Numbered from the stretch's first letter, positions 1 to 59,173 are shown. The stretch is DNA of 64,000 bases from an uncultured Candidatus Saccharibacteria bacterium (GCA_964468315.1 CAYXTA010000004.1:10976-74975), one strand, 5' to 3'. The notes: generated from the letters alone by a model not told the origin. A program made the numbers and translations.

Positions 1-2825
1 ACAACTATTTTCAAAGTATCTTCAATTAAAAACTTTGGATTATACTTTGGCCAAGGTGTAAGGTGTATGGATTTCTTTTCTCCAAATTCTCTCCAAAGTT
101 CTTCTGTGATATGTGGAGCAAAAGGAGCTAAAATTTGTAAAAATATTTTAAAGTCTTTCACAGAAATATTTTCAACTTTATCCATTTCATTTACCAACAC
201 CATCATTGAAGAAATAGCTGTATTGAAAGCAAAATTTGATATATCTTCATGAACTTTTTTAATTGTTTTGTGAAGAGTTTTTTCTAAATCTGAACCTGCA
301 TGCTTTTGCGAGCTGGTCTGGTGATTTTCCCCGAGGACCCGAGCAGAAGCATTAGGTGAAGATTTAACTTTTTGACTAATCTTCCAAACACGCTCGATAA
401 ATCTACGAGAACCAATAATACTATCAGTATTCCATGGCTGACTGGCTTCAAATGGACCCATAAACATTTCATACACACGAAGTGTATCTGCACCATATGT
501 CTTTACAATATCATCTGGATTGATGACATTTCCCCATCTCTTACTCATCTTGCGTCCATCACTCGCTAAAATCATTCCTTGATTTTTCAAAGTTTTAAAT
601 GGTTCAGCTGTCGGCACATAACCCATATCAAAAAGGAATTTATGCCAAAAACGAGAATACAACAAATGTCCTGTCGCATGTTCTGACCCACCGACATACA
701 TATCTACATCTTTCCAATACTTCAACATTTTTTTATCAGCAAAAGATTTTTTGTTTTTCGGATCCATATAACGCAAGAAATACCAAGAACTTCCCGCCCA
801 TCCTGGCATTGTGTTTGTTTCGTATCCTGCTTTTGCCCATGCTTTCACTCCAGCCAAAGGACTTTCTCCTGTACCCGTCGGTTCATATGAAGTAACATTT
901 GGTAAAACGAGTGGAAGTTTTTTATCTGCAACTTCAGAAATAGTTCCATCTACATTATGTATGAGCGGAATCGGCTCACCCCAATATCTTTGTCGTGCAA
1001 ATATTGCATCACGCATCTTATATTTTTTTACAAATTTTCCATTAACTTTTTTTGTAATTTCTTTGCGAGCTTGTTCGGAAGTTAAACCAGTAAATTTATT
1101 TGAAGAGACAAGTTCACCTTCCTCAGAATAAAATAAATTTTTATTCTGAATATATCTTTCCAAGATTTTTGCTTGGCAAATGTTTCCAACTTCTTTAAAA
1201 TTCCTTACTGCTTCTTTTACATCTATCCAAATTAATTTTGCTTCTTCTGTATTCTCTTTTATCTTTGATATATCAACAGAAACTGCGAATCCATGATTAA
1301 CCATTGTCCAAAAACCATTGTGATTACTTTTTCTTTCACAAAACCAATTAGTTCTAAATGTTCCAATTTTTGATTTTACTTTTACATCAGTAGTACCTAT
1401 TTCTTCCGACAATTCTCTCATTAAAGCTTGATATGGGTCTTCACCTTTTTCTATTCCTCCACCAATAAGTATGTATTTACCTGCAAATTTTGTATCTTCA
1501 TCATTTAATTCTTCACACAAAATTTTACCACTATTTTCAATTACTACGGAAACTCGATTTCGAGATCGAGCATCGGGTTTTTTATCTCCAGAAATTTCAG
1601 CGATTACTTCTTTTATCGGCAAATTATATTTCTTCGCGAATTCAAAATCACGCTCATCGTGTGCAGGTACTGCCATCACAGCACCAGTGCCGTATGAAGC
1701 AAGCACATAGTCAGCGACCCAGACAGGCACTTCTTCGCCATTTGCAGGATTTATAGCTTTGATACCTTTGAGTTCTACGCCTGTTTTCTCCTTCTGAATA
1801 GTCATATCTTCTTTCTTTGCTCGTTCTTTCGCTTCACGAATATACTCTGTAACTTCGGCCATATTTTGTGATTGCACAGTGAATTCTCCGATATTTGTAT
1901 GCTCTGGTGAAAGCACAACATATGTAACTCCAAACAAAGTGTCCGCACGAGTTGTGAATACTTTTATATTTCTATTGATTGAAGTTTTAAATTCAATTTC
2001 ACTTCCCTCACTCACTCCAATCCAGTTCTTTTGAATCTCTTTTATATGTGATGACCAATTCAAATCTTCTAAATCTGAAACAAGACGATCAGCATATGAA
2101 GTAATACGCATAAACCATTGGCGCATTGATTTTTTCTCTACTGGATATCCTCCGCGTTCTGAAACAGGATTACCGTCTTTGTCATCGACTATTTCATCGT
2201 TTGCGAGAACTGTACCGAGTTTTGGGCACCAATTAACTTCACTATAGCCTTCATAAGCCAAGCGATAATTCATCAAGATTTTTTCTTTTTCAACCTCTGA
2301 AAGTTTTTTCCAATCTTTATTTTCTTTGGAAAGTTTTTTAATCAATTCTGAAATAGGACGAGCTTTATTTTTTTGTTCATCGTAATATGAATTATAAATC
2401 TGAAGGAAAATCCATTGTGTCCATTTGTAATATTCTGTATCAGTAGTATTTACTTCTCGTGACCAATCATAGGAAAAACCAATCTTGTCGAGCTGACCAC
2501 GGAAAGTTTTGATATTTTTTTCTACAGCTTTGCGAGGATGTATTTTGTGCTCTATGGCGTATTGTTCTGCTGGCAGGCCAAAAGCATCATAACCCATAGG
2601 ATGAAGCACATTATAGCCCTGCATACGCTTCATACGAGCATATACATCACTTCCTATGTATCCGCGAGGGTGTCCGACGTGTAGCCCTGCACCAGAAGGA
2701 TATGGGAACATATCAAGCACATAATGCTTTTTCTTTTTAGTAGTGTTTTGTGTTTTGTAAACTTTTTTTGTTTCCCATTCCTTTTGCCACTTTTTTTCAA
2801 TTTTATTGTGATCGTACTCTTTCAT
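1..2825 (-). CDS. leuS: Leucine--tRNA ligase (LeuRS), C-terminus runs off the window start. Carries an in-frame NUDIX hydrolase domain (~1150-1580) between the CP1/editing domain and the 'FTGLTSEQA...RQRYWGEPIP' segment.
   Basis: Manual minus-strand translation is continuous with no stops from ATG at 2825 to position 1. Motifs found: PYPSGAGLHVGHPRGY (HIGH), TTRADTLFG, GTGAVMAVPAHDERDFEFA, RQRYWGEPIP, KMSKS. It is absent from the ORF track because it has no in-window stop. Confidence 0.9.
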   Translation of the reverse strand, partial: MKEYDHNKIEKKWQKEWETKKVYKTQNTTKKKKHYVLDMFPYPSGAGLHVGHPRGYIGSDVYARMKRMQGYNVLHPMGYDAFGLPAEQYAIEHKIHPRKAVEKNIKTFRGQLDKIGFSYDWSREVNTTDTEYYKWTQWIFLQIYNSYYDEQKNKARPISELIKKLSKENKDWKKLSEVEKEKILMNYRLAYEGYSEVNWCPKLGTVLANDEIVDDKDGNPVSERGGYPVEKKSMRQWFMRITSYADRLVSDLEDLNWSSHIKEIQKNWIGVSEGSEIEFKTSINRNIKVFTTRADTLFGVTYVVLSPEHTNIGEFTVQSQNMAEVTEYIREAKERAKKEDMTIQKEKTGVELKGIKAINPANGEEVPVWVADYVLASYGTGAVMAVPAHDERDFEFAKKYNLPIKEVIAEISGDKKPDARSRNRVSVVIENSGKILCEELNDEDTKFAGKYILIGGGIEKGEDPYQALMRELSEEIGTTDVKVKSKIGTFRTNWFCERKSNHNGFWTMVNHGFAVSVDISKIKENTEEAKLIWIDVKEAVRNFKEVGNICQAKILERYIQNKNLFYSEEGELVSSNKFTGLTSEQARKEITKKVNGKFVKKYKMRDAIFARQRYWGEPIPLIHNVDGTISEVADKKLPLVLPNVTSYEPTGTGESPLAGVKAWAKAGYETNTMPGWAGSSWYFLRYMDPKNKKSFADKKMLKYWKDVDMYVGGSEHATGHLLYSRFWHKFLFDMGYVPTAEPFKTLKNQGMILASDGRKMSKRWGNVINPDDIVKTYGADTLRVYEMFMGPFEASQPWNTDSIIGSRRFIERVWKISQKVKSSPNASARVLGENHQTSSQKHAGSDLEKTLHKTIKKVHEDISNFAFNTAISSMMVLVNEMDKVENISVKDFKIFLQILAPFAPHITEELWREFGEKKSIHLTPWPKYNPKFLIEDTLKIV

Positions 2826-7936: not shown

Positions 7937-9628
7937 TTATTTTCTCTGAATATCTTTCATTATACTTTCTTCTTTCTTTTGAATTTGAGAGAGAGCAATT
8001 TCGTCTTTTTTATTTAAGACTCCATCAGTTTTTATTTTCTTTAGAACTTCCAATTGTTTGTCTAATTCTTCTTTCAACTCTAATGTAGCATTGTAAACAT
8101 TATCGACGGGATGAATTGATCCATTTCTAATTTTTCTTCGAAGAGCAAAGAATTTATACCAACCAAGGTAAAAGATAATAAACAAGAATAGAAGTATAGC
8201 AATAGAGATAAGTAACCAATATTTATTTATAGCCAATTTTATAATGTCTTTATCTAATATATCTAATCTAACATCCTTAGAAAATTCACTTCGAGTTGTT
8301 TCAAACAATACATTCTGTGCTGATATTTCAAAAGTTCCTATAACATTTATTTTTTCAGTTACAAAAGAGAATGTGCCATCCACTCCTGTTGTTTGCATAA
8401 ATTTAGATATTTCATTTCCGTTTTGTTTCAAAACAATTTCTACTTGAGTATTTGGGTAGTCTGTTTTACCAGAGATTGTTACATCTTGTCCTTTGAGTAT
8501 TTCATTTGAACTTAAGTAAAGCTCAGGAACAGATATTGAGAAAGGATTTGTAAAAGTAATTTTTGATTCTGTATGATTACCAGCTTTATCATAAGCAATA
8601 ATAGCCAAAGAATGATCTCCTTTGTTTAATATAGGTAATTCGTATTCATTATTAACTAACTTATCATTTTCTATATTTAATAATTCTCCATTATCTATTG
8701 AGATTGAGTAATTCTGAATACCAGATGTATCATCACTAGCATTTAAAGTTATGAGGTTTTTATTATCAGATGATTTAACAATAGGACTGAAAGTATTTGG
8801 TGCTGTAGTATCAACCTTGAATTTATAATGAGCAACAGGACTCCAGCCACCGTCATAATAACGCAAATGGAAATAAAAAACTCTATCGGGTAAATCATTA
8901 AGTGTCTTTTGTGTGACAGAATTATCGTATGTAATTGTCGGATTTGAGTCTGGAATTTTATTATAAAGTGTTTTTATTGAAGTTGCTGTATTTGGTATTT
9001 TCCAATTAAAAGAAGCTGAACTCAATGAATACCATTTCTCTTGATCTGGATGAGTACTAGAAATAATAATAGGGTCTGGAAAATTAGATTTTGTATTTGC
9101 GACTTCTATTACTGGCACTACAACAGTTTTATCTTCTTGTTTTATTTGTATAACACTTGAATTTTTACCATTTAAAATATCTGTTCCCAAGCCATCATTT
9201 TCTCTAACTGAAGCACTAGCAAAATCAATAGAAGCTGTACCTTGTTTTTTTGCTTTAAAATTAATCGAAATAATAGATCCATTTGATCCTGTAAATCCTG
9301 GATTTTGAATACCTCCATTAAAAGTTATCGTTCCGTCAGTATTTGAAAAAGTTGGATCTTCTACCCATAAAGAAAAAATTGATGATGGTTTTGTGATTGA
9401 AACAACTTCAAGTAAATCTTTTGGAAATTTTATAACTGCTTCTCCATTATTAATAGCTTTTCCTAATGTATTTACAATAACTTTTGTTGAAAATAAATCT
9501 TTTACAGAAACACTTGAATTACTTGGAGTTATAGCTAAGGTTGCTGCTTTAAGGTTAAAAGGTGTAAAGAAAAAAAGTATAAAAGAAAATGCTATTATAA
9601 AATATTTTACAAAATTAAACTTTTGCAT
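7937..9628 (-). CDS. Secreted surface protein. Signal peptide, cohesin-like beta-sandwich plus Ig-like domains, C-terminal TM anchor with a coiled-coil tail.
   Basis: N-terminal FSFILFFFTPFNLKAATLAIT. Cohesin-like pattern (V..v.V.......G.a.I.F..LEVVSI......F.N..G.I.F.GG). C-terminal WLLISIAILLFLFIIFYLGWY followed by a K/E-rich tail. Confidence 0.5.
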   Translation of the reverse strand: MQKFNFVKYFIIAFSFILFFFTPFNLKAATLAITPSNSSVSVKDLFSTKVIVNTLGKAINNGEAVIKFPKDLLEVVSITKPSSIFSLWVEDPTFSNTDGTITFNGGIQNPGFTGSNGSIISINFKAKKQGTASIDFASASVRENDGLGTDILNGKNSSVIQIKQEDKTVVVPVIEVANTKSNFPDPIIISSTHPDQEKWYSLSSASFNWKIPNTATSIKTLYNKIPDSNPTITYDNSVTQKTLNDLPDRVFYFHLRYYDGGWSPVAHYKFKVDTTAPNTFSPIVKSSDNKNLITLNASDDTSGIQNYSISIDNGELLNIENDKLVNNEYELPILNKGDHSLAIIAYDKAGNHTESKITFTNPFSISVPELYLSSNEILKGQDVTISGKTDYPNTQVEIVLKQNGNEISKFMQTTGVDGTFSFVTEKINVIGTFEISAQNVLFETTRSEFSKDVRLDILDKDIIKLAINKYWLLISIAILLFLFIIFYLGWYKFFALRRKIRNGSIHPVDNVYNATLELKEELDKQLEVLKKIKTDGVLNKKDEIALSQIQKKEESIMKDIQRK

Positions 9629-10529
9629 TTTTTCTATTTTTACGAATTCTTTTTATAATTTTATATAAAACAGTAAGTATTATTAAGGTTATAATAATAC
9701 TTCTCCAATGAATTGGGTCTTTTCCATTCAAAGTAGCAACTTGGAAATTACCAGCTTTATCATAAGCTGTAACGATTACATCTGGTTTATTTTTTTGATC
9801 AATCAAAATATAAGTATTACCGGTACGCACAGCTTTAGCATCGCCTTCTTTTACTTCATAATAATTTATTCCTGATTCTTTGTCGGTTGTTTCAAACGAT
9901 AGAAATTTTTTACCATCAAATAAATTATCATCTTGTATAACTTTTATTTCAAAATTTTCTGGAGCTGTATTGTCATTTGATATTATTTCTTTCCATTTAT
10001 CTTGTGGGCTATTACGGGACTCACTTATTGAAATAGTTGAAACATTTTTAACAATACTACGAGAAGTAGCTAAACCATCATTCAAATAAGCTTTTAGATT
10101 TTCAGGTGAAATAGAAAAATTACCAGGCTCGTTTATCTTTACTATTATTTTAAACAATAGAAGATTGTTTCCTTTTATACCGCCTGGTAAACCACCAACA
10201 AAATAGATTTTGTTACTTTCTTGTAAAGAAGGTTTTCTTGGCCAAAGATTAAAAACAGAATTAACTAAACTCAAATCTTTTATTTCGAAATTTCCTTTAT
10301 TGTTATCAGACAAAATAACATATCCATCTAAAGAATTTATAACTTCATCTTCTGTATCAATAAAAACATTTAAAATACTGACATCTTTAGCATATACAGA
10401 ACTTTCACTAGAAACTTTTATAGTGGCTGCAAAAGTTGTATTTGGTAAACAAATTAAAATAGCAAAAATGAATATTGATAAATATTTAAGATTTTGTATT
10501 TTATTTAAAATTAATTTTTTATATTTCAT
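9615..10529 (-). CDS. Membrane-anchored secreted protein with a cohesin-like domain; paralogous architecture to 7937..9628.
   Basis: Signal peptide ..NTTFAATIKV. Cohesin-like segment. C-terminal TM IIITLIILTVLYKIIKRIRKNRK. Confidence 0.45.
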   Translation of the reverse strand: MKYKKLILNKIQNLKYLSIFIFAILICLPNTTFAATIKVSSESSVYAKDVSILNVFIDTEDEVINSLDGYVILSDNNKGNFEIKDLSLVNSVFNLWPRKPSLQESNKIYFVGGLPGGIKGNNLLLFKIIVKINEPGNFSISPENLKAYLNDGLATSRSIVKNVSTISISESRNSPQDKWKEIISNDNTAPENFEIKVIQDDNLFDGKKFLSFETTDKESGINYYEVKEGDAKAVRTGNTYILIDQKNKPDVIVTAYDKAGNFQVATLNGKDPIHWRSIIITLIILTVLYKIIKRIRKNRKNAKV

Positions 10530-12970
10530 ATAGATTTTTTACCCCACTGGAAGAGCATTATAGAGAAATCAACTGAATCGACTTTTTTATCAACATTAAT
10601 ATCTACACAAGGATTTTTAAACGGAGCAACTCTTTTCCAGAAATACAAAAGAATAGAGAAATCGACAGAATCAACTACTTTGTTTTTATTAAAATCTGCT
10701 CCATTACAAGCACCACCGGTTGTTGTGTTGTCTGTAATATTTCCTCCACCGCCTCCTCCTCCGCCTCCACCGCCTCCTCCAGAACCTGAAGACACAGTGA
10801 ATACTCTAGAGGCAGAAGAACTATCTGTACCGAAATGAACTACTAATTTAAAGTAATATGTACCAGCAGTTGTTGCTGTAGCAGAAAGAGCTGTATTCCA
10901 AGATTCACTTGGATTTATAAATTTAGCAGCTGAAGCATAGTAAACATCATCATTACCTCCACAATTATTACTCAAACTACTTACAACACACCATTCATAA
11001 TCATATTCATAACCAGAAAGACCTTCGTTTGTAATAGTTATATTAGCTAAAATTGAAGACAAACTATTTGCTGTAACAGAGTTGATTATAACTTGAGCAG
11101 GAGAACCTGAAACTTCCCAATAATCATTTGTTTGAATTGTTTTACCACTTTCTACTTCTGAAGAAACAACTGTTTCCCATAGACCTTGTACAGCACTATT
11201 TGCAACTGTATATGTGTATTCATAAACACCTGTACTTATGAGTGTCATAGAAACTCCTGAGACAACAACATTACGATTTGTATCATAAAGTGTAACTGTC
11301 GGCGCTGCAAAAGGAGCTGTAGGTGTAGCACTTGAATCTAAGATAAAAACTTTTGTTCTATAGACATAACCAGCTTGTATTCTTTCAACATTACCCATCT
11401 TTACTGTCCAGTTATTTGCACCACCAACAGCAGAGATAGGTGCATCAAGATTTGTTGCTACTTGTTCCCCTATAGATCCCACAGTAGTAAGTGTTGAAGA
11501 AAGTGTATTCCAAACATCTGCAGCGGTAATGTCATTACCATAACTAGTAAGAGTACGTCCAGCATTTGCCCAGACAGCTGCAGAAACATCATCTAAACCA
11601 GTAGAAGACAAAGTTCTTGTTGCTGATGACCATACATCAGCTGCTGTTAAATTACTTGTACCTCGGCTCGATACTTGTGTATCAAGATTATCTACAATTA
11701 ATTTACCAACACTACCGGAAGTACTTAGTGATGAAGTTGCTTTATCCCAAATTGCAGAAACTGAAGTATTAGATAAATCTACACCCGAAGTTAAGGTTCT
11801 TGTTCCGGCTGCCCATACATCAGTTGCGGAAATATTATTGAGTGCTGAAATAGCTGTAAGTACATCAGAAGTTTTTGCATCAGAATTTGTTTTTAATTGT
11901 TCCCCTATAGATCCCACAGTAGTAAGTGTTGAAGAAAGTGTATTCCAAACATCTGCAGCGGTAATGTCATTACCATAACTAGTAAGAGTACGTCCAGCAT
12001 TTGCCCAGACAGCTGCAGAAACATCATCTAAACCAGTAGAAGACAAAGTTCTTGTTGCTGATGACCATACATCAGCTGCTGTTAAATTACTTGTACCTCG
12101 GCTCGATACTTGTGTATCAAGATTATCTACAATTAATTTACCAACACTACCGGAAGTACTTAGTGATGAAGTTGCTTTATCCCAAATTGCAGAAGTTGAA
12201 GCACTATCAATAGTTACAGTTCCAGAATTTATAGAACGAGTTCCATGCGCCCAAACATCTGCAGCAGAAATGTTATTTAATGAATTTATTAATGTTGCAT
12301 TTGATTGAATTTCAGTTATTACTGTTGCTTCTGACGAATCAATATAGCTCTCTGTTGCAAGAGAACCTCCTCCTGCAATATTTTTTGTTGTAAGTTGTCT
12401 GTTTGATGCAAAAGTATCATCCCAAACATCAGCAGCTAATGCACCAAAAGCAGACAATGTACGAGTACTATTACTCCAAACATCTGTAGCTAAAGTTCCA
12501 AAAGTTGTAAGAGATCTTGTTCCATTTGACCACACAGAAGATGCAATAGAAGCATCCGTAACATTTGGAGCTTTTACAATAAATGATTTATCTAATTTTA
12601 ATAAATCTCCGCCAATAAGAGTCCCACAAGTTATAAATGTAGGGTATTTTCCTTCTGTTACAGGTATTGTGTACGCATAATAATGCCAACCAGTAGCATC
12701 ATCAGACATAGTTGCTTCATTTACTAAAGTTGCACCTGCTGGAGAATAAATAGATATAGTACAATTATCTGTTGTTGGAGTGTAATCATCGTTGTAAATA
12801 AATTCACCTATTACAATACTCTCAGTGGGAGTATAAGTCTCAGTAGCATAAGCTGGATTTACGATTAAAAACGTAAATAAAAAAATACTTACAATTTTAA
12901 CTGAAGTACGGAATATTTTATTTTTTAAATAATTTATTTGCACAAAATTTACTATGAAAAAACAAAACAC
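10526..12970 (-). CDS. Large secreted surface protein with Ser/Thr-rich 145-aa tandem repeats, a Gly15 linker and a C-terminal type-I dockerin domain.
   Basis: Signal peptide. Near-exact 435-nt direct repeat. GGGGGGGGGGGGGGG linker. Two dockerin segments DFNKNKVVDSVDFSILL and DINVDKKVDSVDFSIML (D.N.D..V..xD..L(L) calcium-loop plus helix pattern). Confidence 0.7.
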   Translation of the reverse strand: MFCFFIVNFVQINYLKNKIFRTSVKIVSIFLFTFLIVNPAYATETYTPTESIVIGEFIYNDDYTPTTDNCTISIYSPAGATLVNEATMSDDATGWHYYAYTIPVTEGKYPTFITCGTLIGGDLLKLDKSFIVKAPNVTDASIASSVWSNGTRSLTTFGTLATDVWSNSTRTLSAFGALAADVWDDTFASNRQLTTKNIAGGGSLATESYIDSSEATVITEIQSNATLINSLNNISAADVWAHGTRSINSGTVTIDSASTSAIWDKATSSLSTSGSVGKLIVDNLDTQVSSRGTSNLTAADVWSSATRTLSSTGLDDVSAAVWANAGRTLTSYGNDITAADVWNTLSSTLTTVGSIGEQLKTNSDAKTSDVLTAISALNNISATDVWAAGTRTLTSGVDLSNTSVSAIWDKATSSLSTSGSVGKLIVDNLDTQVSSRGTSNLTAADVWSSATRTLSSTGLDDVSAAVWANAGRTLTSYGNDITAADVWNTLSSTLTTVGSIGEQVATNLDAPISAVGGANNWTVKMGNVERIQAGYVYRTKVFILDSSATPTAPFAAPTVTLYDTNRNVVVSGVSMTLISTGVYEYTYTVANSAVQGLWETVVSSEVESGKTIQTNDYWEVSGSPAQVIINSVTANSLSSILANITITNEGLSGYEYDYEWCVVSSLSNNCGGNDDVYYASAAKFINPSESWNTALSATATTAGTYYFKLVVHFGTDSSSASRVFTVSSGSGGGGGGGGGGGGGNITDNTTTGGACNGADFNKNKVVDSVDFSILLYFWKRVAPFKNPCVDINVDKKVDSVDFSIMLFQWGKKSI
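11462..12205. repeat. Intragenic tandem direct repeat: ~310 nt identical, period 435 nt, two copies.
   Basis: Sequence beginning ttgttcccctatagatcccacagtagtaagtg recurs at 11462 and 11897 with identical continuation for ~310 nt. Confidence 0.8.
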
Positions 12971-12990: not shown

Positions 12991-13149
12991 TTATTTTCTT
13001 TTATCCTCGTCATTGCCTTTAAAAATACCTGTAAGGTTTTTAAAAGCATCTACTATATTTTTTGTAAGCTCTGGAATTCTTTTTGACCCAAAAAGTAAAA
13101 CGATAACCACTGCTATTATTATTATTTCTCTTGTTCCTAATCCAAACAT
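12991..13149 (-). CDS. tatA: Twin-arginine translocase subunit TatA/E (52 aa).
   Basis: MFGLGTREIIIIAVVIVLLFGSKRIPELTKNIVDAFKNL..; canonical TatA N-terminus. Below the ORF-track length cutoff. Confidence 0.8.
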   Translation of the reverse strand: MFGLGTREIIIIAVVIVLLFGSKRIPELTKNIVDAFKNLTGIFKGNDEDKRK

Positions 13150-13188
13150 ATAATTATTTTAAGTTAAATTAATAAAGAAAACTTTTAT

Positions 13189-13338
13189 TTATTTCTTATC
13201 TGAACTTTTAAATGCACCAAACAATTCTCTTACTGCATCAGCAATAGATTTTGTAAGTTCTGGAATCTTTTTTGACCCAAAAAGTAAAACTATTATTAAA
13301 ACTATTATTAAAATTTCTTTTGTTCCTAATCCAAACAT
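13189..13338 (-). CDS. tatA: Twin-arginine translocase subunit TatA/E, second tandem copy (49 aa).
   Basis: MFGLGTKEILIIVLIIVLLFGSKKIPELTKSIADAVRELF.. Confidence 0.8.
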   Translation of the reverse strand: MFGLGTKEILIIVLIIVLLFGSKKIPELTKSIADAVRELFGAFKSSDKK

Positions 13339-13352
13339 ATTTTTATATTAAA

Positions 13353-14087
13353 TTAAGTTATTAAATTACGACCAACAATATTATTTTTTCTGTTAAACAA
13401 GACAGTGAGTTCATAAATTAATACCAACGGTGCTGCCATTAGTATTAATGATAAACCATCAGTGGGTGGAAGTAAAGAGACAATTACAAATATAACAGCG
13501 ATTGCATGTCTTCTTTTTGATTTTAGAAAAGCTACACTCATAATACCTACTTTTATTAAAAAAGTTATAACTAATGGAAAAATAAAAAGTAATCCAAGCA
13601 AAGTAGAAGTTAATACTATTTGATATACATATGAACTAATATCCCAATAATTTACAACGCCTAAATTTGTATTAACAACTGAAATTAATTTAATAGCGTA
13701 ATAAAGCATTATAGAACTATAAAGAAATCCTAAAATAAATAATCCTAAACCAAGAGGTAAAGAAAGTAAAAAAAAGTTCCTTTCTTTTTTAAGTAAAGCA
13801 GGTTTTAAAAATGAATAAAGAAAATATATAAAAACAGGAACAGTGATAACTGAAGCAAGGAAAAATCCTATACTCATAGCTAAATCAACCAATTGAAATG
13901 GAGAAGTCGTAGCAATAGTCACACCATCCATAGTAAGATATTTCAATAATAATCTAACAATAGGACCTATATTAAAAAAACTAATTACGAAAACTGTCGC
14001 GAAAATTTTTACTAAAATCAAAAGTCTTCTTCGTAATTCTTCGAAATAATTACCGTATCTGGAAATATTTTCTTGTAGATTGCTCAT
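13353..14087 (-). CDS. tatC: Twin-arginine translocase subunit TatC.
   Basis: N-terminal ..FEELRRRLLILV.. and a six-TM hydrophobic profile typical of TatC. Confidence 0.8.
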   Translation of the reverse strand: MSNLQENISRYGNYFEELRRRLLILVKIFATVFVISFFNIGPIVRLLLKYLTMDGVTIATTSPFQLVDLAMSIGFFLASVITVPVFIYFLYSFLKPALLKKERNFFLLSLPLGLGLFILGFLYSSIMLYYAIKLISVVNTNLGVVNYWDISSYVYQIVLTSTLLGLLFIFPLVITFLIKVGIMSVAFLKSKRRHAIAVIFVIVSLLPPTDGLSLILMAAPLVLIYELTVLFNRKNNIVGRNLIT

Positions 14088-14099
14088 TACTGAAATTGA

Positions 14100-15056
14100 T
14101 TATGCTATTTTTCTTTTATTCTTTTTCTTTATTACACTAACAACTGTTTCTGTGCTTGTTGGTGTTGTAGTATTTAAAGAATCATCTACTGGTATTTGAA
14201 TTATTGGATCAGTTGGAGTAACAGGATTTTCTACTACTGGAGTAGTATCAACTATTGCTGGATCTACTGGTGTAGGAGTTGGGTCAGTAATTACTGGATC
14301 TGTTGGAGTAACAGGATTTTCTACTACTGGAGTAGTATCAACTATTGCTGGATCTACTGGTGTAGGAGTTGGGTCAGTAATTACTGGATCTGTTGGAGGT
14401 TCAACAGGAGTAACTGTTGATACTTTACGATGTCTAGTAAGCCATTCAGCAACAGCATTTACTCCTTCTTCCCAAGAAGGATAATTTCTTGTATCTGTTC
14501 CTGTATTACCTACATTCCCTGGATTGTTTGTACTTACTGCTATCCCCAAAGTGCCAAAACGAGAGTCAAGTTCCATAATAGCAAGCATTAATCTGATATC
14601 TACCCTATAAATTTGTCCAGCATTCCAAACCATATGACCATTTAAAGGACTATCTGGATTTGCTTTTTTAATATAAGCTTCTATTTTATCAGAAGAATCC
14701 ATAACCCCCATTTTTTCTAAAATATTTTGTATTTTTATTTCATGATATGGATCTGTAGCATAAGGAGTTATATCGTATTCAAGTAAACATTTTGTAGCAT
14801 CATTTATAATACTTGGATTAAACGAAGCCTCTATACCATTTTTTACAACTTCAGCTTCTGAAAAAGTTGTTACAGCTGCTGTTTGTTCTATAGTAGAAAC
14901 CAATTTCAATTTACTTAAAGTATTTTGAACATCTAAAATCTCTGCATCAACTGCATTTATTCTTTCTAAATCTCCAGACTGAAAAGCTTGATCTTTTGCG
15001 AGAGCAAGACCATTTAATCTATTTGTAAGTAATTGTATAAGATAATCTATATTCAT
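14100..15056 (-). CDS. Putative peptidoglycan hydrolase: N-terminal coiled coil, lysozyme-like (glucosaminidase-family-like) core, C-terminal Pro/Thr-rich tandem repeat.
   Basis: RLMLAIMELDSRFGTLGIAVSTNNPGNVG..YPSWEEGVNAVAEWL resembles the PF01832-type motif. 90-nt tandem repeat at 14205-14400. Confidence 0.4.
   Translation of the reverse strand: MNIDYLIQLLTNRLNGLALAKDQAFQSGDLERINAVDAEILDVQNTLSKLKLVSTIEQTAAVTTFSEAEVVKNGIEASFNPSIINDATKCLLEYDITPYATDPYHEIKIQNILEKMGVMDSSDKIEAYIKKANPDSPLNGHMVWNAGQIYRVDIRLMLAIMELDSRFGTLGIAVSTNNPGNVGNTGTDTRNYPSWEEGVNAVAEWLTRHRKVSTVTPVEPPTDPVITDPTPTPVDPAIVDTTPVVENPVTPTDPVITDPTPTPVDPAIVDTTPVVENPVTPTDPIIQIPVDDSLNTTTPTSTETVVSVIKKKNKRKIA
14205..14400. repeat. Intragenic 90-nt tandem repeat (2.2 copies) encoding a PT-rich linker (VTPTDPVITDPTPTPVDPAIVDTTPVVENP).
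   Basis: Exact duplicate ggatctgttggagtaacaggattttctactactggagtagtatcaactattgctggatctactggtgtaggagttgggtcagtaattact. Confidence 0.85.
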
Positions 15057-15066
15057 AAAATTTTAA

Positions 15067-17916
15067 TTAAAAATAAATCAACATTCTCCACATTTCCTGA
15101 CCAGTATGACGCATTATATAAAGATAATTTAAACCATCTGCTGTTTCTACTATTTCCATTCTATTACCAATGATTGCAGTAGAGTGTCCATAAGGAATCG
15201 TTCCAAGAGAACTAACAACATTTGTAGAAAAGTTATAAGAAAAAACTCTACCAGTGGCATCTTTATGGAAATAAATTGTATTATGACCATCATATGCATA
15301 CATAGAACCGGTAGTTAAAGTTTCTGATTGTGGTGAGAAGAAGTAACCATAAGTCCATCTAGCAGTTGTAATATCGTAAATATCTGCAGTGTTTGAAGCT
15401 CCACCTCTAGGAGAAAACATATATTTACCCTTAGTAGCTGTATCAGTATTATTCCAAATCCATAATAATTGTGTACCAGCACCTCTAGCTGGCACTCCTA
15501 AAATTGCATAAGTAGATGTAGTATCAGTAAGTGTAAGAGCAGCAGTTGTGAGGGCTGTAGCAGTATTTGAAGTTATTGTTCCCTCTTGACCTAAAGCCGT
15601 ACCTCCTGTGATACGTAATCTTTTACCAGCCCACATGTTTGTAGTCCAGTTCTTTGTAGTTGTTTCTGTAACAGGAGTAGTAGTACCACCGGCAGTTATC
15701 AAACCCCAACTATCAGCTATCTCATAATGAGTAGTAGCATCTGGAGTAAAAGATTGTGAAGCATAAGTAAGAGTTGTAGCTGTATTTGAAATTATCGAAA
15801 TAATTCCAGTAGCAAAACCTGTTCCTGATTCTATTCGAAGTTTATATCCTGCCCAACAGTTAGTAACCCAGTTCTTTGAAGAGTCTACCAAAGTAGTAGC
15901 TGATCCACCTGAAGCATGGCCCCGGTTTTGCATATTAGCCGGTTTAAATTGATTATCCGTACCAAAAACTTTAGAATCATAAATAGCATATTTTGAAGTA
16001 CCATTTACACCAGCAACTATTGTTGCAACAGTCAAAGTTGTTGCAGTATTAGCAGTAATCCACCTAATCTGTGCTGTTGGTGCTGTACCAGCAACTGACA
16101 AATGTACTAATTTACCTACATGTTCATTGGTAGTCCAAGCCTTTGATGAGTCCACAATTACTGTAGTAGATTGAGAATTACTTGCTGCCATAGATCCTGC
16201 AGCAGATGTGGCTATATCAAAAGTAGTAGTTGATCCAACACCTAAAATCGTGTGAGCTGCATTATAAGCACTATCAGAACAGCCCGAAAAAGTTACCGAG
16301 TTTCCTGTTTTAAACCAGTTTGCACTTGCTGTGGTTACCAAACATGTAGCACCAACAGAAGTTATTTCAATAGTACAACCAGATCCAGTACCACCAGTAG
16401 TAGCTTTACCTGTACCTGTCGTAAAACCAGTACCAGTACCAGATGCCACCAATTCTATCCCCGTAACTACTCCTGCAGAACCTGAAAAAGTAGTAGAAGT
16501 AACTATCACTCTAGCTGCTGTTCCACCCACTGAACATGTCAAAATATCTCCTAACAAATATCCCGTACCTCCTGCTGTTGGAGCAGGATTTACTGCTGTA
16601 ACCCCAGCGGCAATTCTAGCACCAGTAGTTACTCCAATCGGATTCCAGCCGTTCATTTTTACACCAATATTATTTACTACACCATCATCTAAACTATTCC
16701 CTTGCATCCAAAAGTCATTCTCTGGAGAATAGGCATATATAGCTGCAGCTGCACCACCAGAAATGAATGCTTTATCGTAATCCCCCCAAATTTCATAAGT
16801 TGAAGTTGCGTCTGGATTTGTATCCCAAGGTTTTACTACTGTAAACACTGTGGCTGTATTACAAACAATTCTTCTATGTTGTCCAATCCCTGTACCTCCT
16901 GTAATTAAGATACGATAGTTAGCATATCTATCTACAGTCATTGTCTGAGTAGAATCAGTAAGTGTCCGATCAGAACCCGCTGTAGCAGTAGAAGAAAGAA
17001 AAGCACTTCCTGTTTTTGCTAATCTTTCAAAAGTACAATCTGTACCCAAAGCAGCTTGAATTAAACCTTGGTTACAGGTTTTGATCTGCCATGAATCGTG
17101 AATAATATCATAATATTGTAAAGTGAAAAACGGGGCTGTAGTTGCAGAAGAAAGTAAGTATATCCCCCCTGTTGTAGTTGTAAAAAAAGAAGTATAGTCA
17201 GGAGTTACATCCCAAGTAGCTACAGTGTATGTACTTGAAATTATTTGGAAATGAGCTTGTGAACCAGCAGTGGTAACCGGTAAAGCATACGGGGCTACAG
17301 CAGCAAAGATCTGGTTGTTCCATGGATCGTGAGGTTGCAAGTTGGAATCTTGAATATAGAGAGTTGTTGCATCATTATATAAAATCTTTTTGTATTGAGT
17401 AGCATCAGTACCGAAAGTAATACCTACCATATATCCAGACCATTGATTAAATTTCCACTTTTTGGTCGAATCAGCAATATTGGCTGTAGTCGTGGAAGTA
17501 ATGACTCCCATGTCATGAATAGTTTCCCCTGTGTAGGTCAATACCCGCTCTTGACCAGAACCAGTTCCTTGTATTATTTTTATAGTTTTACCATTTAAAG
17601 TCGGTCCACGAAGTCCTGGTATAGTAATCGATGTGGAAGTAGCACTTAAAACTCTTCCATGAAAACCACGAAAACCTGTATATCTTAGTGAGAGAGTTGT
17701 GACTGGTGTCGTAATAGGAGTTGCAAGCTGTTGCCATGAGTCAGCATAAGTATCGTATCTATAAAAAGCTGCAGTAGACATGTAGTAAATAAACCTAGCG
17801 CCACCATCATCCGCTGTGGCCATACCAGAAAGAGCAACTGTTGCAGTAGGTGCAAAACGACACCATTCCCAAACCGGTAAATCTACTTGTGGTTTTAAAT
17901 TATTTGTTACAGACAT
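15067..17916 (-). CDS. Giant (949 aa) Thr/Gly/Ser-rich repeat protein with no N-terminal signal peptide. Recurring W..N.W.G..L.I..GTG.GQ modules and a C-terminal beta-propeller-like region.
   Basis: Repeated motifs TKKWKFNQWSGYMVGITFGTD, SSKAWTTNEHVGKLVHL, SSKNWVTNCWAGYKLRIESGTG, TTKNWTTNMWAGKRLRITGGTALGQ. Confidence 0.55.
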   Translation of the reverse strand: MSVTNNLKPQVDLPVWEWCRFAPTATVALSGMATADDGGARFIYYMSTAAFYRYDTYADSWQQLATPITTPVTTLSLRYTGFRGFHGRVLSATSTSITIPGLRGPTLNGKTIKIIQGTGSGQERVLTYTGETIHDMGVITSTTTANIADSTKKWKFNQWSGYMVGITFGTDATQYKKILYNDATTLYIQDSNLQPHDPWNNQIFAAVAPYALPVTTAGSQAHFQIISSTYTVATWDVTPDYTSFFTTTTGGIYLLSSATTAPFFTLQYYDIIHDSWQIKTCNQGLIQAALGTDCTFERLAKTGSAFLSSTATAGSDRTLTDSTQTMTVDRYANYRILITGGTGIGQHRRIVCNTATVFTVVKPWDTNPDATSTYEIWGDYDKAFISGGAAAAIYAYSPENDFWMQGNSLDDGVVNNIGVKMNGWNPIGVTTGARIAAGVTAVNPAPTAGGTGYLLGDILTCSVGGTAARVIVTSTTFSGSAGVVTGIELVASGTGTGFTTGTGKATTGGTGSGCTIEITSVGATCLVTTASANWFKTGNSVTFSGCSDSAYNAAHTILGVGSTTTFDIATSAAGSMAASNSQSTTVIVDSSKAWTTNEHVGKLVHLSVAGTAPTAQIRWITANTATTLTVATIVAGVNGTSKYAIYDSKVFGTDNQFKPANMQNRGHASGGSATTLVDSSKNWVTNCWAGYKLRIESGTGFATGIISIISNTATTLTYASQSFTPDATTHYEIADSWGLITAGGTTTPVTETTTKNWTTNMWAGKRLRITGGTALGQEGTITSNTATALTTAALTLTDTTSTYAILGVPARGAGTQLLWIWNNTDTATKGKYMFSPRGGASNTADIYDITTARWTYGYFFSPQSETLTTGSMYAYDGHNTIYFHKDATGRVFSYNFSTNVVSSLGTIPYGHSTAIIGNRMEIVETADGLNYLYIMRHTGQEMWRMLIYF

Positions 17917-17922
17917 AAAATT

Positions 17923-18675
17923 TTATGAAAATGCTAAATTATTTCTAATACCATTCGCCGAAGCGTTTCTTGCTGTATCTATATATAAATATCTACCGTC
18001 AACACCTCCTAATGCAACTAAGTTTGTGGCAGATGTCAGAGTACCAACAGTAGTAATAGTACCTAAAGTCAAAGATCCAGAAATAGAATCGATTGTAACT
18101 TTTTGTCTTTGAGCAGAATCAACTACAGCTAAGGAGTCAACTTGCTTAACCAATCTTCTAAGCAACATCGCACTGTCATCTGTAGCAGGATTGATTTGAG
18201 TGTTTGTAGTATCTTTTAGAGTAACGCTACTTGCTCCACCAGAAGAAGATGTAAGAAGATTATTACTACCATCAAAAGTAAGGTTTGCTGTTTTTGCTTG
18301 AATAAGAGCAAGAGTTGCTTCAGTAGCAGGATCTATACGTGCATTAGAAGAATCTTTTAAACCAACAACATTTGAAGTCGGTGTACTACCAGCCACATAA
18401 GCATCAGCTTGATTTGGAAATAATGCTGATGCTGCAATACCAAGACCAGCGACTCCAGCAAACTTTAAAAATAACCTTTTATTATCATCTACTATAACTT
18501 TATTTTTCTTTATTTCTGTTTTTACTTTTACAATACTTTCTTCTTTTTGTTTATTTAAAATAATTTGCTTCTTTTGTACAGAAATAGAATCAACCTTTGG
18601 ACGCGAAATAGTACTTTTTTTTAAAGTACTACCAGAAACAAGTTTCAAATGATTTTTGAATTCACTCATATACAA
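17923..18675 (-). CDS. Thr/Ser-rich secreted protein with an internal Tat-like motif (NKRLFLKFAGVAGLGIAASALFPNQADA) and two ~40-aa repeats (LKDSSNARIDPATEA.. / LKDTTNTQINPATDD..).
   Basis: KR-LFLK followed by a hydrophobic h-region and an A-x-A cleavage site. A long Lys-rich N-terminal extension precedes it. Confidence 0.45.
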   Translation of the reverse strand: MYMSEFKNHLKLVSGSTLKKSTISRPKVDSISVQKKQIILNKQKEESIVKVKTEIKKNKVIVDDNKRLFLKFAGVAGLGIAASALFPNQADAYVAGSTPTSNVVGLKDSSNARIDPATEATLALIQAKTANLTFDGSNNLLTSSSGGASSVTLKDTTNTQINPATDDSAMLLRRLVKQVDSLAVVDSAQRQKVTIDSISGSLTLGTITTVGTLTSATNLVALGGVDGRYLYIDTARNASANGIRNNLAFS

Positions 18676-46961: not shown

Positions 46962-46967
46962 ATATAT

Positions 46968-47304
46968 AGGTGTTAGGTAGTTGAGTTCACTTTTAGTGGA
47001 TTAGGAAAGTCCGAACACATACCAGTTTAGTCTGGAAAAGTAATGGGTAATACCCATATGTAGTAATACATAGGTGCGAACAGAGACGTCTTGATTTGAA
47101 AATTTCAAGATATCCTAAAGCAATTTAGGATAAGCTTTTATAGTAATATAGAAGTTGAAACGGCTAAATCCTTACTCGTGTGCAAGATCGTGTCCTGAGC
47201 GAAAGCGAAGGAAGAATCGCTTGAGCTTTAGAGTAATTTAAAGCCTAGATAAATAACTATCATTCCGCAAGGAAAACAAAATTCGGCTTATAGACACCTA
47301 AAAC
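46968..47304 (+). ncRNA. rnpB: RNase P RNA (bacterial type A).
   Basis: CR-I GGAAAGTCCGAACAC. CR-V ACAAAATTCGGCTTATAGACACC. 5'/3' P1 complementarity (gtgttaggt / acctaaaac). Dedicated promoter and terminator. Confidence 0.8.
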
Positions 47305-47312
47305 AAAATGAG

Positions 47313-53335: not shown

Positions 53336-53559
53336 GTGCTGTTCTTTGTTTTGTTTCGTTCTACTAATTTTATTATTTTATTTGTCTTTCCAAACTGTCA
53401 TCTTGTTTTATAGATACAAGTAAACTCCATCTTTTTTAGCTTGTGATGTTCAAGCATTGTGTGCTCAATTGAGGCACACAACACCGACTCAATAAGTCCG
53501 GTCGGAACGGGTCCGACGCTCATCTTCTGATAAATCAGAAGATGGGACGTTTTTCAAAT

Positions 53560-55088
53560 TGAATTATTCCACGACCAGCTTCCGCTAGCCGTGCCTTGTT
53601 ACGACTTAGTCCCTGTCACCGAGCTTACCTTAGGCCATCCTTATGGACAGACTTTGGGTACTCCCGGCTCCCTTGACTTGACGGGCGGTGAGTACAAGAC
53701 TTGAGAACGTATTCACCGCAGTATAGCTGACCTGCGATTACTAGCAATTCCGGCTTCATGGGGTCGAGTTGCAGCCCCCAATCCGAACTGGCGCCTTCTT
53801 TATTACGATTAGCTCAGGGTTACCCCGTCGCGACGCGTTGTAAAGGCGATTGTATTATGTGTGTGGCCCCGGATATCAGAGGGTCATGCTGACCTGGCGT
53901 TATCCTCGCCTTCCTCCCCCCATTATTCTCACGAAATCGGCACGGAAATTTCCGCACTTTTTTCACGAAGATAATGGGGGGCAGTCTCGCCTGACACTTG
54001 TAACAGACAACGAGGGTTGCGTTCGTTACCCCACTTAAGGGAACAATTCAAACCACGAACTGACGACGGCCATGCAACACCTGCCTAACTGCCCGTGAAG
54101 GCTACTAAGGTTTCCCAAAGTATTCAGCTAGGTTTCAAACCCGGGTAAGGTTTTTCGTTTACCATCGAATTGAACCACATAATCCACTGCTTGTGCAAGT
54201 CCCCGTCTATTCCTTTGAGTTTTAACCTTGCGGTCGTACTACCCAGGCGCTTCTCTTAACGCGTTAGCTTCGCCTCTCAGAGGGTCGATACTCCGAAAAG
54301 CTAGTGAAGATCGTTTAGGGCGTGGACTACTGGGGTATCTAATCCCATTCGCTACCCACGCTTTCGTGTTTGAGTGTCAGGAATACGCTAGTGCACTGCC
54401 TTCGCTTTTGGTGTTCCTCATGATATCAACGGATTTCACCCCTACTCCATGAGTTCCATGCACCCCTCGTATCCTCAAGTTTAGCCGTTTCCTCCGCATG
54501 CCCCCGGTTAAGCCGAAGAATTTAACAGAAGACTAACTAAACCACCTACACACCCTTTACGCCCAGTAATTCCGGATAACGCTTGAGGCCTCTGTATTAC
54601 CGCTACTGCTGGCACAGAGTTTGTAGCCTCTTATTCGTGGGGTACTATCAATAAACTTTCTCCCCCATAAAAGAATTTTACGTGCCGAAGCACTTCATCA
54701 TTCACGCGGCGTCGCTCGATCAGACTTTCGTCCATTGTCGAATATTCTCGGCTGCAGCCACCCGTAGGTGTATGGACCGTGTCTCAGTTCCATCGGTGGG
54801 GGTCAGGCTCTCACCTCCCCTAGACGTCATTGCCTTGGTAGGCTTTTACCCTACCAACTAGCTGATATCCCGCAGACCATTCCCCAAGCAATAAATTTTT
54901 ACCGTTCACCTATTTATCAGTGAGGGACCATCGGGTGTTAGCTCCGCTTTCGCGGAATTATTCCCGACTTGGGGGTATGTTATCTACGTGTTACTACCTC
55001 GTTCGCCATGGGTCTAAACCCATTCGACTTGCATGCCTTATCCACGCCGCCAGCGTTCATCCTGAGCTAGGATCAAACTCTAAAATAA
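53560..55088 (-). rRNA. rrs: 16S rRNA gene, stand-alone; no 23S, 5S or tRNA downstream. The 3' tail lacks CCUCC, helix h40 is expanded, and the 530 loop is divergent.
   Basis: 5' AGAGTTTGATCCTAGCTCAGGATGAACGCTGGCGGCGTG (rc of 55030-55082). 3' AAGTCGTAACAAGG plus helix 45 with a GGAA loop (rc of 53570-53600). Internal conserved blocks throughout. Confidence 0.9.
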
Positions 55089-55741
55089 AATCCTTGCTAA
55101 TAACTTTCGTTATTAATTTAGACTGAACGGAACAAAACAAAAGGCAGAACGGAATGTTCGAACTTTTATTTTGCACGTTGCTTATTTTTCTGTTTGTCCT
55201 GCTCGCACTCACAAAATTATTACAATTATTTCGTGAGTGGAAATTACTTAATTTAGAATATTTGGAAACTTGCTTGCATCATCGCAGCAACTTGAAAAGA
55301 AGCCGCGATGTGCAATCTCATATTTCACTTGAATTTTCAAAGTACCGCTCTGTTTTTTAATCAGAGTGTTACCCAGTATATAGATATATAAAAAGGAGTC
55401 AAGCTATGGCTATACAGGGCCATTTTTAGTGCTGCGTGGCTCTCAGGTGCCTATTTTGACCTTATTTTAAGCCATATTTTAACCTTTCTTAATAACTCCT
55501 TGGGGACTGGCTTGGCACACTGTGCGCAGACAGTAATAAACGGACAACAGATTTGTTCCCCTTCATTGCTGTATGCGTTCTTTTTTTGTTCCTCGTGCTG
55601 GTTTTACAAAAGGAGGTGCCGGGGTTTTATAGGGATTTTGTGATGGAAATTTTGTCGTTTTTTGTTTTCTCGTTTTTGTTGTTTTCTAATCGTTTCGAAA
55701 AATGAAAACATGTACCAAATCGAAAAGAAAAGGAGTTTCAC

Positions 55742-56281
55742 ATGTCTCGAGTAATTTCTCGGTCAACAGTTCTCGCATCAGTCGTCGGGTGCCTCGCTCT
55801 CGCCGCCACCACAGCCACAGCCTTCGTTGCCGTTGGATGGCATGGCCTGTCGCAAAGTGAACGCGACAGTAGAATCTTGTCCCGTGCCAGAAGTTATTCT
55901 TCCGGCACGTACACAGGGATGTCATGCAAAGAATGGGTTCGAAGAGTTGTAAGGGATGCATCTGGAAATGTTGTTACAATTCCCGCAACAAGTTCCAACG
56001 ACTACCAGTGGGAAAGCAGCGCTGATGTATATGGATACGCAGCAACGCAGTGTCCGCCACGCGGAATCGATTCTGGCCGAATCATTCAAATGATTTGGAC
56101 AAACCAAAGCAACGGGCGCACAAACCCACACACTGCAATCATTACAAGCATCACCAGCACTGGGATGAATTGGATTGATTGCAACTGGAACGGTGACCAG
56201 CGAGTTCAGCGGCACTTCGTAAGTTTCTCTGACTTCAATACTCGCGTTCGAAACAACTACACTGTTTATAAAATTCGATAG
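55742..56281 (+). CDS. Secreted CHAP/NlpC-like putative peptidoglycan amidase/peptidase. Canonical AAGGAG SD 7 nt upstream.
   Basis: Signal peptide. Cys (GMSCKEWV) and downstream His (NPHTAII) arranged as in a CHAP domain. ~50% GC. Confidence 0.45.
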   Translation: MSRVISRSTVLASVVGCLALAATTATAFVAVGWHGLSQSERDSRILSRARSYSSGTYTGMSCKEWVRRVVRDASGNVVTIPATSSNDYQWESSADVYGYAATQCPPRGIDSGRIIQMIWTNQSNGRTNPHTAIITSITSTGMNWIDCNWNGDQRVQRHFVSFSDFNTRVRNNYTVYKIR

Positions 56282-56360
56282 CACTTTTCTTGAAGGGATT
56301 CCACTCCGTGGAGTCCCTTTAGTATTTACTTATTACGTGTTTACATAGTCTTATAAAATA

Positions 56361-56882
56361 ATGAACCCGAAAAAAATTTCAATCATCGTTGTTATCTTTG
56401 CAATATTCCTCATCCTTCCATTTTTCCTGCACGACAAAAAAGAAGACAATAAAGAAAACAGTCAGAAACCAAATATTGAGACTGAAAAAATTAAAACCAC
56501 CATCAACAATAACTGGAAAGAATTTTCTGATCAGACGAAACATATATCCTTTTTGGTGCCGGATTATTTATTTCCTTTTTTCGAGGATGACCGGGTGAAT
56601 TTCCGAGAATACAAGGAGGGTCCGGGTTTTATTGATATCCACTTACAAGCATCGCAAGACCCTGATGTAGAAAAGGCAGTCGAAAAGTTAAATTACGTAC
56701 TTGGGGAAATTACCGATAGAAGAATGATTGATGGAGCCCAGTCTCTTATTGTTCCTCTAGCAGGCGAGGGTTCCGCTGGTCAAAAAACCTTGTATACAGT
56801 TAGTGAGGGTATCCTCTACACCATAAACACTCGTTTTATTGACGAAGAAAAATTCTGGAACAGTATTAAATTTTTAAACTAG
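56361..56882 (+). CDS. Hypothetical membrane-anchored protein.
   Basis: N-terminal TM ISIIVVIFAIFLILPFFL. Confidence 0.4.
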   Translation: MNPKKISIIVVIFAIFLILPFFLHDKKEDNKENSQKPNIETEKIKTTINNNWKEFSDQTKHISFLVPDYLFPFFEDDRVNFREYKEGPGFIDIHLQASQDPDVEKAVEKLNYVLGEITDRRMIDGAQSLIVPLAGEGSAGQKTLYTVSEGILYTINTRFIDEEKFWNSIKFLN

Positions 56883-56887
56883 AGCCC

Positions 56888-57793: not shown

Positions 57794-57797
57794 GGTT

Positions 57798-59135: not shown

Positions 59136-59173
59136 TTGAAGCCAAATTATAGGCGTTTGATAAGAAAAAGCAA

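Follow-up and report, generated by a model that had tools for sequence, protein, structure and literature searches.

Do three overlapping genes of an uncultured bacterium encode a cohesin-dockerin assembly on the cell surface, and if so, what do they display? The question is raised by a 64,000-nucleotide (nt) stretch of DNA (GCA_964468315.1 CAYXTA010000004.1:10976-74975; hereafter, the window) deposited as uncultured Candidatus Saccharibacteria, for which an earlier note proposed a dockerin-bearing adhesin docked onto two membrane-anchored cohesins. The three open reading frames (ORFs) that it placed on the minus strand were all recovered: gene A (10526..12970; 814 aa when read from a GTG at 12970), encoding a secreted dockerin-bearing surface protein, followed by gene B (9615..10529; 304 aa) and gene C (7937..9628; 563 aa), both encoding type I membrane proteins. 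As the note had it, stops and starts overlap, with 4 nt (ATGA) shared by the A stop and the B start and 14 nt shared by the B stop and the C start, and these overlaps point to translational coupling. We consider it likely that the trio is a non-cellulosomal cohesin-dockerin surface-display operon of a Paceibacteria-type Patescibacteria bacterium; this interpretation is supported to the extent that sequence, fold, and synteny allow, with the docking itself predicted.

Based on family-level comparisons, protein A was confirmed to end in a type I dockerin (aa 755-812; 10535..10708, minus strand, as for all features of the trio), which comprises two calcium-loop/helix repeats and is predicted to bind Ca2+. 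The earlier note had proposed searching the three proteins with the Pfam models Dockerin_1 (PF00404) and Cohesin (PF00963). With Dockerin_1, the whole 814-aa protein scored 18.7 bits, under the Pfam cut-off of 22.9 bits, and the isolated 64-aa segment passed narrowly (23.3 bits, E-value 7.2e-5). The same model matched all 32 orthologous C-terminal segments from syntenic loci (best E-value 4.5e-17). A dockerin profile searched against the Protein Data Bank (PDB) matched CelS (1daq and 2mte, E-value 1.6e-7) and Cel5A (2vn5_B, 2.2e-6) across both repeats, and 2vn5_B was already the top match when the single dockerin sequence was used. These results uphold the duplicated dockerin of the earlier note, and the two peptides that it read as a 12-residue calcium loop plus helix were located at aa 759-775 (10646-10696) and aa 790-806 (10553-10603), where they fit that pattern. 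The loops (D759-D770 and D790-D801) carry D, N, N, D, D and D, N, D, D, D at positions 1, 3, 5, 9, and 12, and the motif D-x-[DN]-x-[DN]-x3-[DN]-x2-D, present twice within 15-30 residues, has a single occurrence in the six frames of the window. In the full-length AlphaFold2 (AF2) model of A, the dockerin helices (aa 768-776 and 799-807) have a predicted local distance difference test score (pLDDT) of 84-87. VDSVDFSILL and VDSVDFSIML are the helix sequences of the two repeats, whose DNA is 76% identical, and this internal symmetry appears to resemble that of dual-binding-mode dockerins. Cys755 and Cys788 form a conserved pair, for which other lineages have a different one. The two alternatives within the dockerin family are C(-4)...NPC before loop 2, or C(-5)...FNC with a Cys at position 4 of loop 1, and their alternation suggests that they serve as disulfide staples. 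A phmmer search of 1.84 billion representatives with the dockerin returned 110 proteins at an E-value ≤ 1e-10, and the match was the extreme C-terminus in nearly all of them, at protein sizes of 45-2177 aa.

The candidate receptors lie directly downstream. In protein C, the domain at aa 29-165 (9134-9544) was assigned to the cohesins from its predicted fold: the AF2 model of aa 28-175, computed from a 29-row alignment, is all-beta (pLDDT 95.1, predicted template modelling [TM] score 0.86), and in a Foldseek search of the PDB cohesins took ranks 1-41 and 43-45. Because the first non-cohesin appeared only at rank 42, the matches are specifically to cohesins and not to generic immunoglobulin (Ig) folds. 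They cover types I, II, and III as well as non-cellulosomal kinds (A. fulgidus, C. perfringens), with a best E-value of 1.3e-9 (4dh2_A), TM-scores of 0.63-0.78 (0.78 for 4dh2_A), and sequence identities of 8-18%. The C family comprises >440 proteins of ~570 aa, some with precomputed PF00963 and the NCBI name 'cohesin domain-containing protein'. When scanned individually, 9 of 43 C orthologues matched Pfam Cohesin (best E-value 5.4e-9) and 37 of 43 matched Big_13; the cohesin model also matched 1 of 34 B orthologues (2.5e-7), and PF00963 is precomputed for the B orthologue of a Doudnabacteria metagenome-assembled genome (MAG; locus L086). The outcome that the earlier note had named as fatal to its proposal, two downstream proteins with neither a cohesin match nor structural similarity, did not occur, given these family matches and the fold of C. 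Sequence comparison makes B a clear paralogue of C: the N-terminal domains are 29% identical (BLASTP E-value 3e-10), and hhalign joined the two families with a probability of 100% and an E-value of 4.7e-39, in an alignment that reaches through a shared Ig-like domain. Through this homology, the N-terminal domain of B (aa ~35-170; 10020-10427) would adopt a cohesin fold as well.

The association of the three genes was traced across Patescibacteria. A scan for the C-type cohesin pattern with one genome per GTDB species recovered 211 species, and 80 loci were taken for analysis, which together with locus L004 and the window gave 82 loci. On their six-frame ORFs, we ran hidden Markov models (HMMs) for the dockerin, the conserved core of A, the B family, the C family, and the cohesin domain. 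The same-strand order of dockerin ORF, B, and C was present in 67 of the 82 loci. Among the 15 non-standard loci, nine were cut by a contig end ahead of the dockerin gene, and four had a dockerin ORF upstream and were scoring or assembly quirks (one with C in duplicate, one with B and C fused in a single ORF, and two more), so that a dockerin ORF was truly missing only in L026 and L082. No locus (~20 kb each) contained more than one dockerin ORF, and the 64-kb window has a single one. In the reverse direction, four divergent dockerin proteins served as starting points (from Gribaldobacteria, Doudnabacteria, and two other MAGs), and each proved to have B- and C-like genes directly downstream. 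Because the trio recurs in many related species, it appears to be a real non-cellulosomal surface-display module in which binding is predicted, and we regard the conservation of gene order as the strongest indirect argument that the modules may work together. Some loci depart from this layout in other ways: C is in tandem duplicate in L053 (6511..9943), L049 has an additional C-like gene (3..1586) on the upstream side of TatC, and B and C form one 867-aa ORF in L063 (6784..9384), either through true fusion or through an error of assembly.

Rates of divergence were compared in 45 clean triplets, which were also used for mirror-tree analysis. Mean p-distances were 0.36 for the dockerin, 0.46 for the A core, 0.44 and 0.68 for the cohesin and the remainder of C, and 0.59 and 0.60 for the cohesin and the remainder of B. 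In their respective proteins, the dockerin and the C cohesin change most slowly, whereas the body of A and the remainder of C diverge.

Several observations weigh against the display interpretation. The cohesin-like domains of the earlier note are backed by the family matches and by the fold of C, but the window's own B and C gave no match to Pfam Cohesin. Searches of PDB chains by sequence with the cohesin domain (single sequences and profiles A1 and A2) returned Ig-like adhesin repeats and noise, and no cohesin; the putative cohesin assignment comes from a predicted fold at 8-18% identity and from a minority of orthologues. Mirror-tree partial correlations were low (r of 0.25 for the C cohesin and 0.10 for the B cohesin), and this weak signal slightly favours C over B as the possible partner of the dockerin. 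In addition, the repeat region of A, about 380 residues, was modelled at a pLDDT <50, and linkage of the trio to TatAC and glucosaminidase-like genes (see below) hints at a wider envelope role outside the display model. The Pfam result for B and C, the failure of sequence profiles to find solved cohesins, and the weak co-variation are all arguments for unpaired modules, as are the matches of EF-hand models to 13 of the 32 dockerin segments. In that case, no docking would take place within the trio. B and C would function separately as membrane-anchored, Ig-like surface proteins that happen to begin with a jelly-roll of the cohesin type. The dockerin of A would have another target, namely a cohesin whose gene lies elsewhere or a component of the host cell, or would take up only Ca2+, acting as an EF-hand-like stabiliser. 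We consider this unlikely, given that a single dockerin gene almost always neighbours the two cohesin genes and is translationally coupled to them, that the dockerin and the C cohesin evolve more slowly than the rest of their proteins, and that the fold of C resembles cohesins specifically.

The predicted topology of B and C places the cohesins outside the cell. Both proteins have a signal peptide (B, aa 1-34; C, aa 1-28) with an A-x-A-type site (A↓AT), directly after which the cohesin begins, and both have a C-terminal transmembrane anchor, in agreement with the earlier note. In B, the cohesin-like domain is followed by an Ig-like domain (aa ~185-270; 9720-9977), a transmembrane helix (aa 277-295; 9645-9701), and a short basic tail; B also gave a match to an OmpL47-type domain under threshold. 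Protein C is longer: its cohesin is followed by a domain that is conserved in the family and has no type assignment (aa 186-270; 8819-9073), a Big_13/DUF7743-like Ig domain (aa 273-360; 8549-8812), a second Ig-like domain that resembles Lap adhesin repeats (6xi3; aa 365-460; 8249-8536), a transmembrane helix (aa 465-496; 8141-8236), and a conserved cytoplasmic tail of 67 residues that is predicted to be helical (aa 497-563; 7940-8140). The single C-terminal helix with adjacent basic residues predicts an N-out, C-in orientation for both proteins, with the cohesin farthest from the membrane. Each protein has one cohesin and then Ig-like domains, and a carbohydrate-binding module (CBM) was not found in either. 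Having a signal peptide, a cohesin at the mature N-terminus, a C-terminal transmembrane anchor, and a basic cytoplasmic tail, B and C would qualify as anchoring scaffoldins as judged from their predicted features. The region around the helix and tail of C has a run of invariant or near-invariant columns between 489 and 538 (G489, W490, K519, E521, L522, Q525, L529, E530, and L538), and conservation of the tail hints at an intracellular partner.

The analysis thus establishes which domains are present, the export signals, the membrane anchors, the operon structure, and the co-inheritance of the trio in many species. From these elements we infer that the dockerin of A binds the cohesin of B and/or C, and the choice of receptor, the Ca2+ dependence, and the role of A are inferred with it. 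In the proposed mechanism, all three proteins would be exported by Sec. B and C would stay in the membrane through their single C-terminal helix, each holding its cohesin at the distal N-terminus, raised on spacer domains of Ig-like or unassigned type, of which B has one and C has three. A, freed from its signal peptide, would be kept on the cell by its poly-Gly-tethered, Ca2+-binding dockerin, which would plug into the cohesin of C and/or B. The body of A would then be a non-enzymatic fibre of highly variable length and sequence, whose most plausible role would be at the surface, in adhesion, or in host contact.

Protein A starts with a Sec-type signal peptide (aa 1-42, ...NPAYA↓TE; 12845..12970), whose hydrophobic segment (aa 19-37) is the single N-terminal one in the topology scan and which lacks a twin-arginine motif. 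Next is an all-beta N-terminal sandwich (aa 45-135; 12566..12838; AF2 pLDDT 75-92), in which Cys70 and Cys115 are conserved as invariant alignment columns. The central region (11480..12544) contains 13 copies, found by motif scan, of an ~18-aa repeat, A(A/T)DVWxxxxRTL(T/S). Within the gene, a direct duplication of 300 nt (11427-11726 and 11862-12161, 96% identical, spacing 435 nt) copies a block of the DVWxxxxRTLT repeats; a general repeat search detected it, and Tandem Repeats Finder did not. The length of the repeat region varies among orthologues, with whole proteins ranging from about 340 to >3100 aa (six of the ORFs extend past the 10-kb flank), and this spread suggests repeat expansion and contraction. 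Toward the C-terminus, two tandem MG2/Ig-like beta-sandwiches form the conserved core (aa 520-727; 10790..11413; AF2 pLDDT 82-94). The core reached 31.3 bits against Pfam MG2, just under the cut-off of 32.8, and PF01835 is precomputed in most orthologues; its Foldseek matches were RbmA, the MG domains of TEP1/alpha2-macroglobulin, and the Lap and InvE adhesins. In the A family as a whole (340 matches), the majority have precomputed PF00404 and/or PF01835. A flexible linker (aa 728-754; 10709..10789; AF2 pLDDT 31-34) connects the core to the dockerin, and its Gly run, given as 15 residues in the earlier note, consists of 13 consecutive Gly (aa 731-743) within GSG13. A PDB search with the whole protein was dominated by matches of this linker to single-chain variable fragment (scFv) antibodies. 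Searches of Pfam, NCBIfam, PHROGs, and folds identified only beta-sandwich domains in A, and no catalytic or carbohydrate-binding domain. The label 'adhesin' is a guess, given Ig/MG-like sandwiches and low-confidence repeats as the only contents. A phage origin of A and its neighbours was also considered, and was rejected for lack of any meaningful PHROG match.

Cohesins and dockerins are the defining modules of cellulosomes, and matches to them in a candidate phyla radiation (CPR) metaproteome have been read in that sense (10.1101/2021.08.21.457207), which raises the question of whether the trio could assemble polysaccharide-degrading enzymes on the surface as a minimal cellulosome. For the locus in the window this is effectively refuted, and we hold it to be exceedingly improbable: A, the sole dockerin protein in the 64 kb and in each locus that contains one, has none of the catalytic or carbohydrate-binding domains that such cargo would carry, B and C have a single cohesin each and no CBM, and no glycoside hydrolase genes adjoin the cluster. 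The locus is not a cellulosome because dockerin-bearing enzymes, a multi-cohesin scaffoldin, and CBMs are all missing from it.

Upstream of the trio, on the same strand, lies a conserved block (12991..18675) that encodes a 250-aa protein, a 949-aa protein, a 318-aa glucosaminidase-like protein, and components of the twin-arginine translocation (Tat) system, namely TatC (13353..14087; Pfam TatC E-value 7.7e-36) and two TatA ORFs (13189..13338 and 12991..13149). The gaps between TatC, TatA, TatA, and A measure 14-40 nt. The 318-aa protein has Pro/Thr-rich C-terminal repeats, and its glucosaminidase match scored 29.6 bits against a cut-off of 30.2; family searches found no recognisable domain in the 949-aa neighbour. 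The order of the block is the same in L004 and L085-L087 and is inverted yet adjacent in L088. TatC is upstream of the trio in 27 loci, and the block precedes it in Campbellbacteria, Doudnabacteria, Gribaldobacteria, and other MAGs. Because twin-arginine motifs are lacking (1 of 104 family members for A, 0 of 82 for B, and 0 of 118 for C), the three proteins are not obvious Tat substrates, and we rejected Tat export of A, B, or C.

This linkage leaves room for an explanation in terms of envelope biogenesis, in which the trio would form part of a larger conserved cluster (a 710-950-aa protein, the glucosaminidase-like protein, TatC, and TatA) that builds or remodels the surface layer (S-layer), the wall, or the division apparatus; docking would be possible, with a structural cargo. 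Retention of the whole block across the lineages named above, adjacent even where inverted, the tight spacing from TatC to A, and a glucosaminidase-like score close to its cut-off all agree with this idea. We nevertheless judge it to be quite unlikely, since function is not given by synteny alone, the 949-aa neighbour offers no recognisable domain, and the signal peptides of A, B, and C are of the Sec type. The extreme variability of A in length and sequence is also a better fit to an exposed interaction surface than to a housekeeping scaffold.

The display operon that we favour could also be part of something more specialised. In a speculative and distinctly improbable extension, the trio would be a lineage-specific host-contact device: the symmetric dockerin would clamp the hypervariable fibre to B and C, simultaneously or alternately, the cytoplasmic tail of C would relay what happens at the fibre into the cell, and the whole would be tied to the TatAC/glucosaminidase-like block. 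If true, Paceibacteria-type episymbionts would have an apparatus for adhesion or signalling that has not been described before.

As to the organism, all homologues that bear organism names belong to Patescibacteria (Paceibacterota, Nomurabacteria, Campbellbacteria, Yonathbacteria, and others). The reduced genome assumed in the earlier note agrees with this, the complete genomes of relatives measuring 811 kb (CP064977.1) and 977 kb (CP066698.1). Third-party annotation (TPA) MAG records that contain a Paceibacteria-type operon are often titled 'uncultured Candidatus Saccharibacteria' or 'Gammaproteobacteria' (e.g., L007, L034, and L049), and these titles are probably placeholders or wrong labels. 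The window is AT-rich, with a GC content of about 31%. A rise from about 0.31 to 0.42-0.49 occurs from 54 kb onward (54000..64000), partly across protein-coding ORFs. A 16S rRNA gene (53557..55088, minus strand) and an RNase P RNA (46965..47306, plus strand) are present, no 23S match was found beside the 16S gene, and no tRNA gene was found across the 64 kb. A promoter and terminator scan gave no signals above those of shuffled sequence. The true start of gene A is probably at 12943, which would give a protein of 805 aa. This start appears more likely because it is the one called by the Joint Genome Institute (JGI) on an identical metagenome contig (L001), and because an orthologue that is 84% identical (P0208) starts with MQINYLKNK in a comparison of orthologue N-termini.

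How new is such a system? The earlier note had called it unexpected for a reduced-genome bacterium, which overstates the case. NCBI already labels orthologues (in a related MAG, its Prokaryotic Genome Annotation Pipeline names MES3031705.1 'dockerin type I domain-containing protein' and MES3031707.1 'cohesin domain-containing protein'), and cohesin- and dockerin-domain proteins are reported as expressed in the metaproteome of CPR Shapirobacterales cited above, where they are read as a cellulosome, a reading that is unfit for the locus in the window. In sources that give them a name, B and C of the window appear as 'hypothetical protein'. In the searchable literature on cohesins or dockerins together with Patescibacteria, CPR, or Parcubacteria, we found no description of the trio operon. 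The modules are thus familiar and partly annotated; what is new is a conserved operon of one cargo and two receptors in a poorly understood lineage. For Saccharibacteria, the attachment device that has been characterised is the type IV pilus (PMC12206443, PMC9894109). Little is known of how ultra-small Patescibacteria outside that group form their surface and adhere to hosts, and the locus offers a concrete and widely conserved candidate, a hypervariable fibre predicted to be docked non-covalently on two conserved membrane receptors. The dockerin (64 aa) and cohesin (about 140 aa) modules are small, so their interaction is directly testable. The locus also serves as a warning that cohesin and dockerin matches in CPR genomes are not evidence of cellulosomes.

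Compared to known systems, the trio would work most like the single-cohesin anchoring scaffoldins OlpA and OlpC of C. thermocellum and ScaE of R. flavefaciens, by analogy with the capture of a dockerin partner by one surface-anchored cohesin, docking being predicted here. The cohesins of OlpC (4dh2) and OlpA (3ul4) are among the best fold matches of C, and that of ScaE (2zf9) also matches. Known anchoring scaffoldins are held by S-layer homology (SLH) repeats or a sortase signal, whereas the anchor in B and C is a C-terminal transmembrane helix. The predicted cargo also differs, being a single non-enzymatic fibre instead of enzymes or a primary scaffoldin, two paralogous receptors are encoded with it in one operon, and sequence identity to known cohesins is low (8-18%). 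Cohesin-dockerin pairs are known outside cellulosomes, as a survey by Peer et al. in 2009 reportedly found. The non-cellulosomal modules of A. fulgidus (2xdh) and of the C. perfringens glycoside hydrolase (GH) toxins (2vo8, 2jh2, and 2w1n), which rank among the 30 best fold matches, share with the trio a use outside plant-cell-wall degradation, in organisms that lack cellulosomes. However, those modules are carried by enzymes or toxins or occur as orphans, whereas here there is a dedicated, syntenic cargo-plus-receptors operon that is conserved throughout a bacterial lineage with genomes of roughly 0.8-1 Mb.

The dockerin itself shares the duplicated 12-residue calcium loop plus helix with the type I dockerins of CelS (1daq) and C. 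cellulolyticum Cel5A (2vn5_B), and its repeats are near-symmetric like those of dual-binding-mode dockerins. In contrast to these clostridial type I dockerins, the A family has an unusually hydrophobic and invariant helix face (DFSILLxFW in both repeats), a conserved Cys pair in two arrangements, and a poly-Gly linker in place of a Pro/Thr linker. Finally, the tandem sandwiches of A and the Ig-like repeats of C match structures of RbmA (V. cholerae), Lap-type adhesins of Marinomonas and Pseudomonas, and Yersinia InvE. Proteins of this kind are retained by type I secretion system (T1SS) plugs, LapG systems, or outer-membrane anchors, whereas A would be retained by cohesin-dockerin docking on a monoderm-type envelope. 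The trio would in this way extend the cohesin-dockerin system by an anchoring mode based on a transmembrane helix and by an operon organisation that combines the cargo with its receptors.

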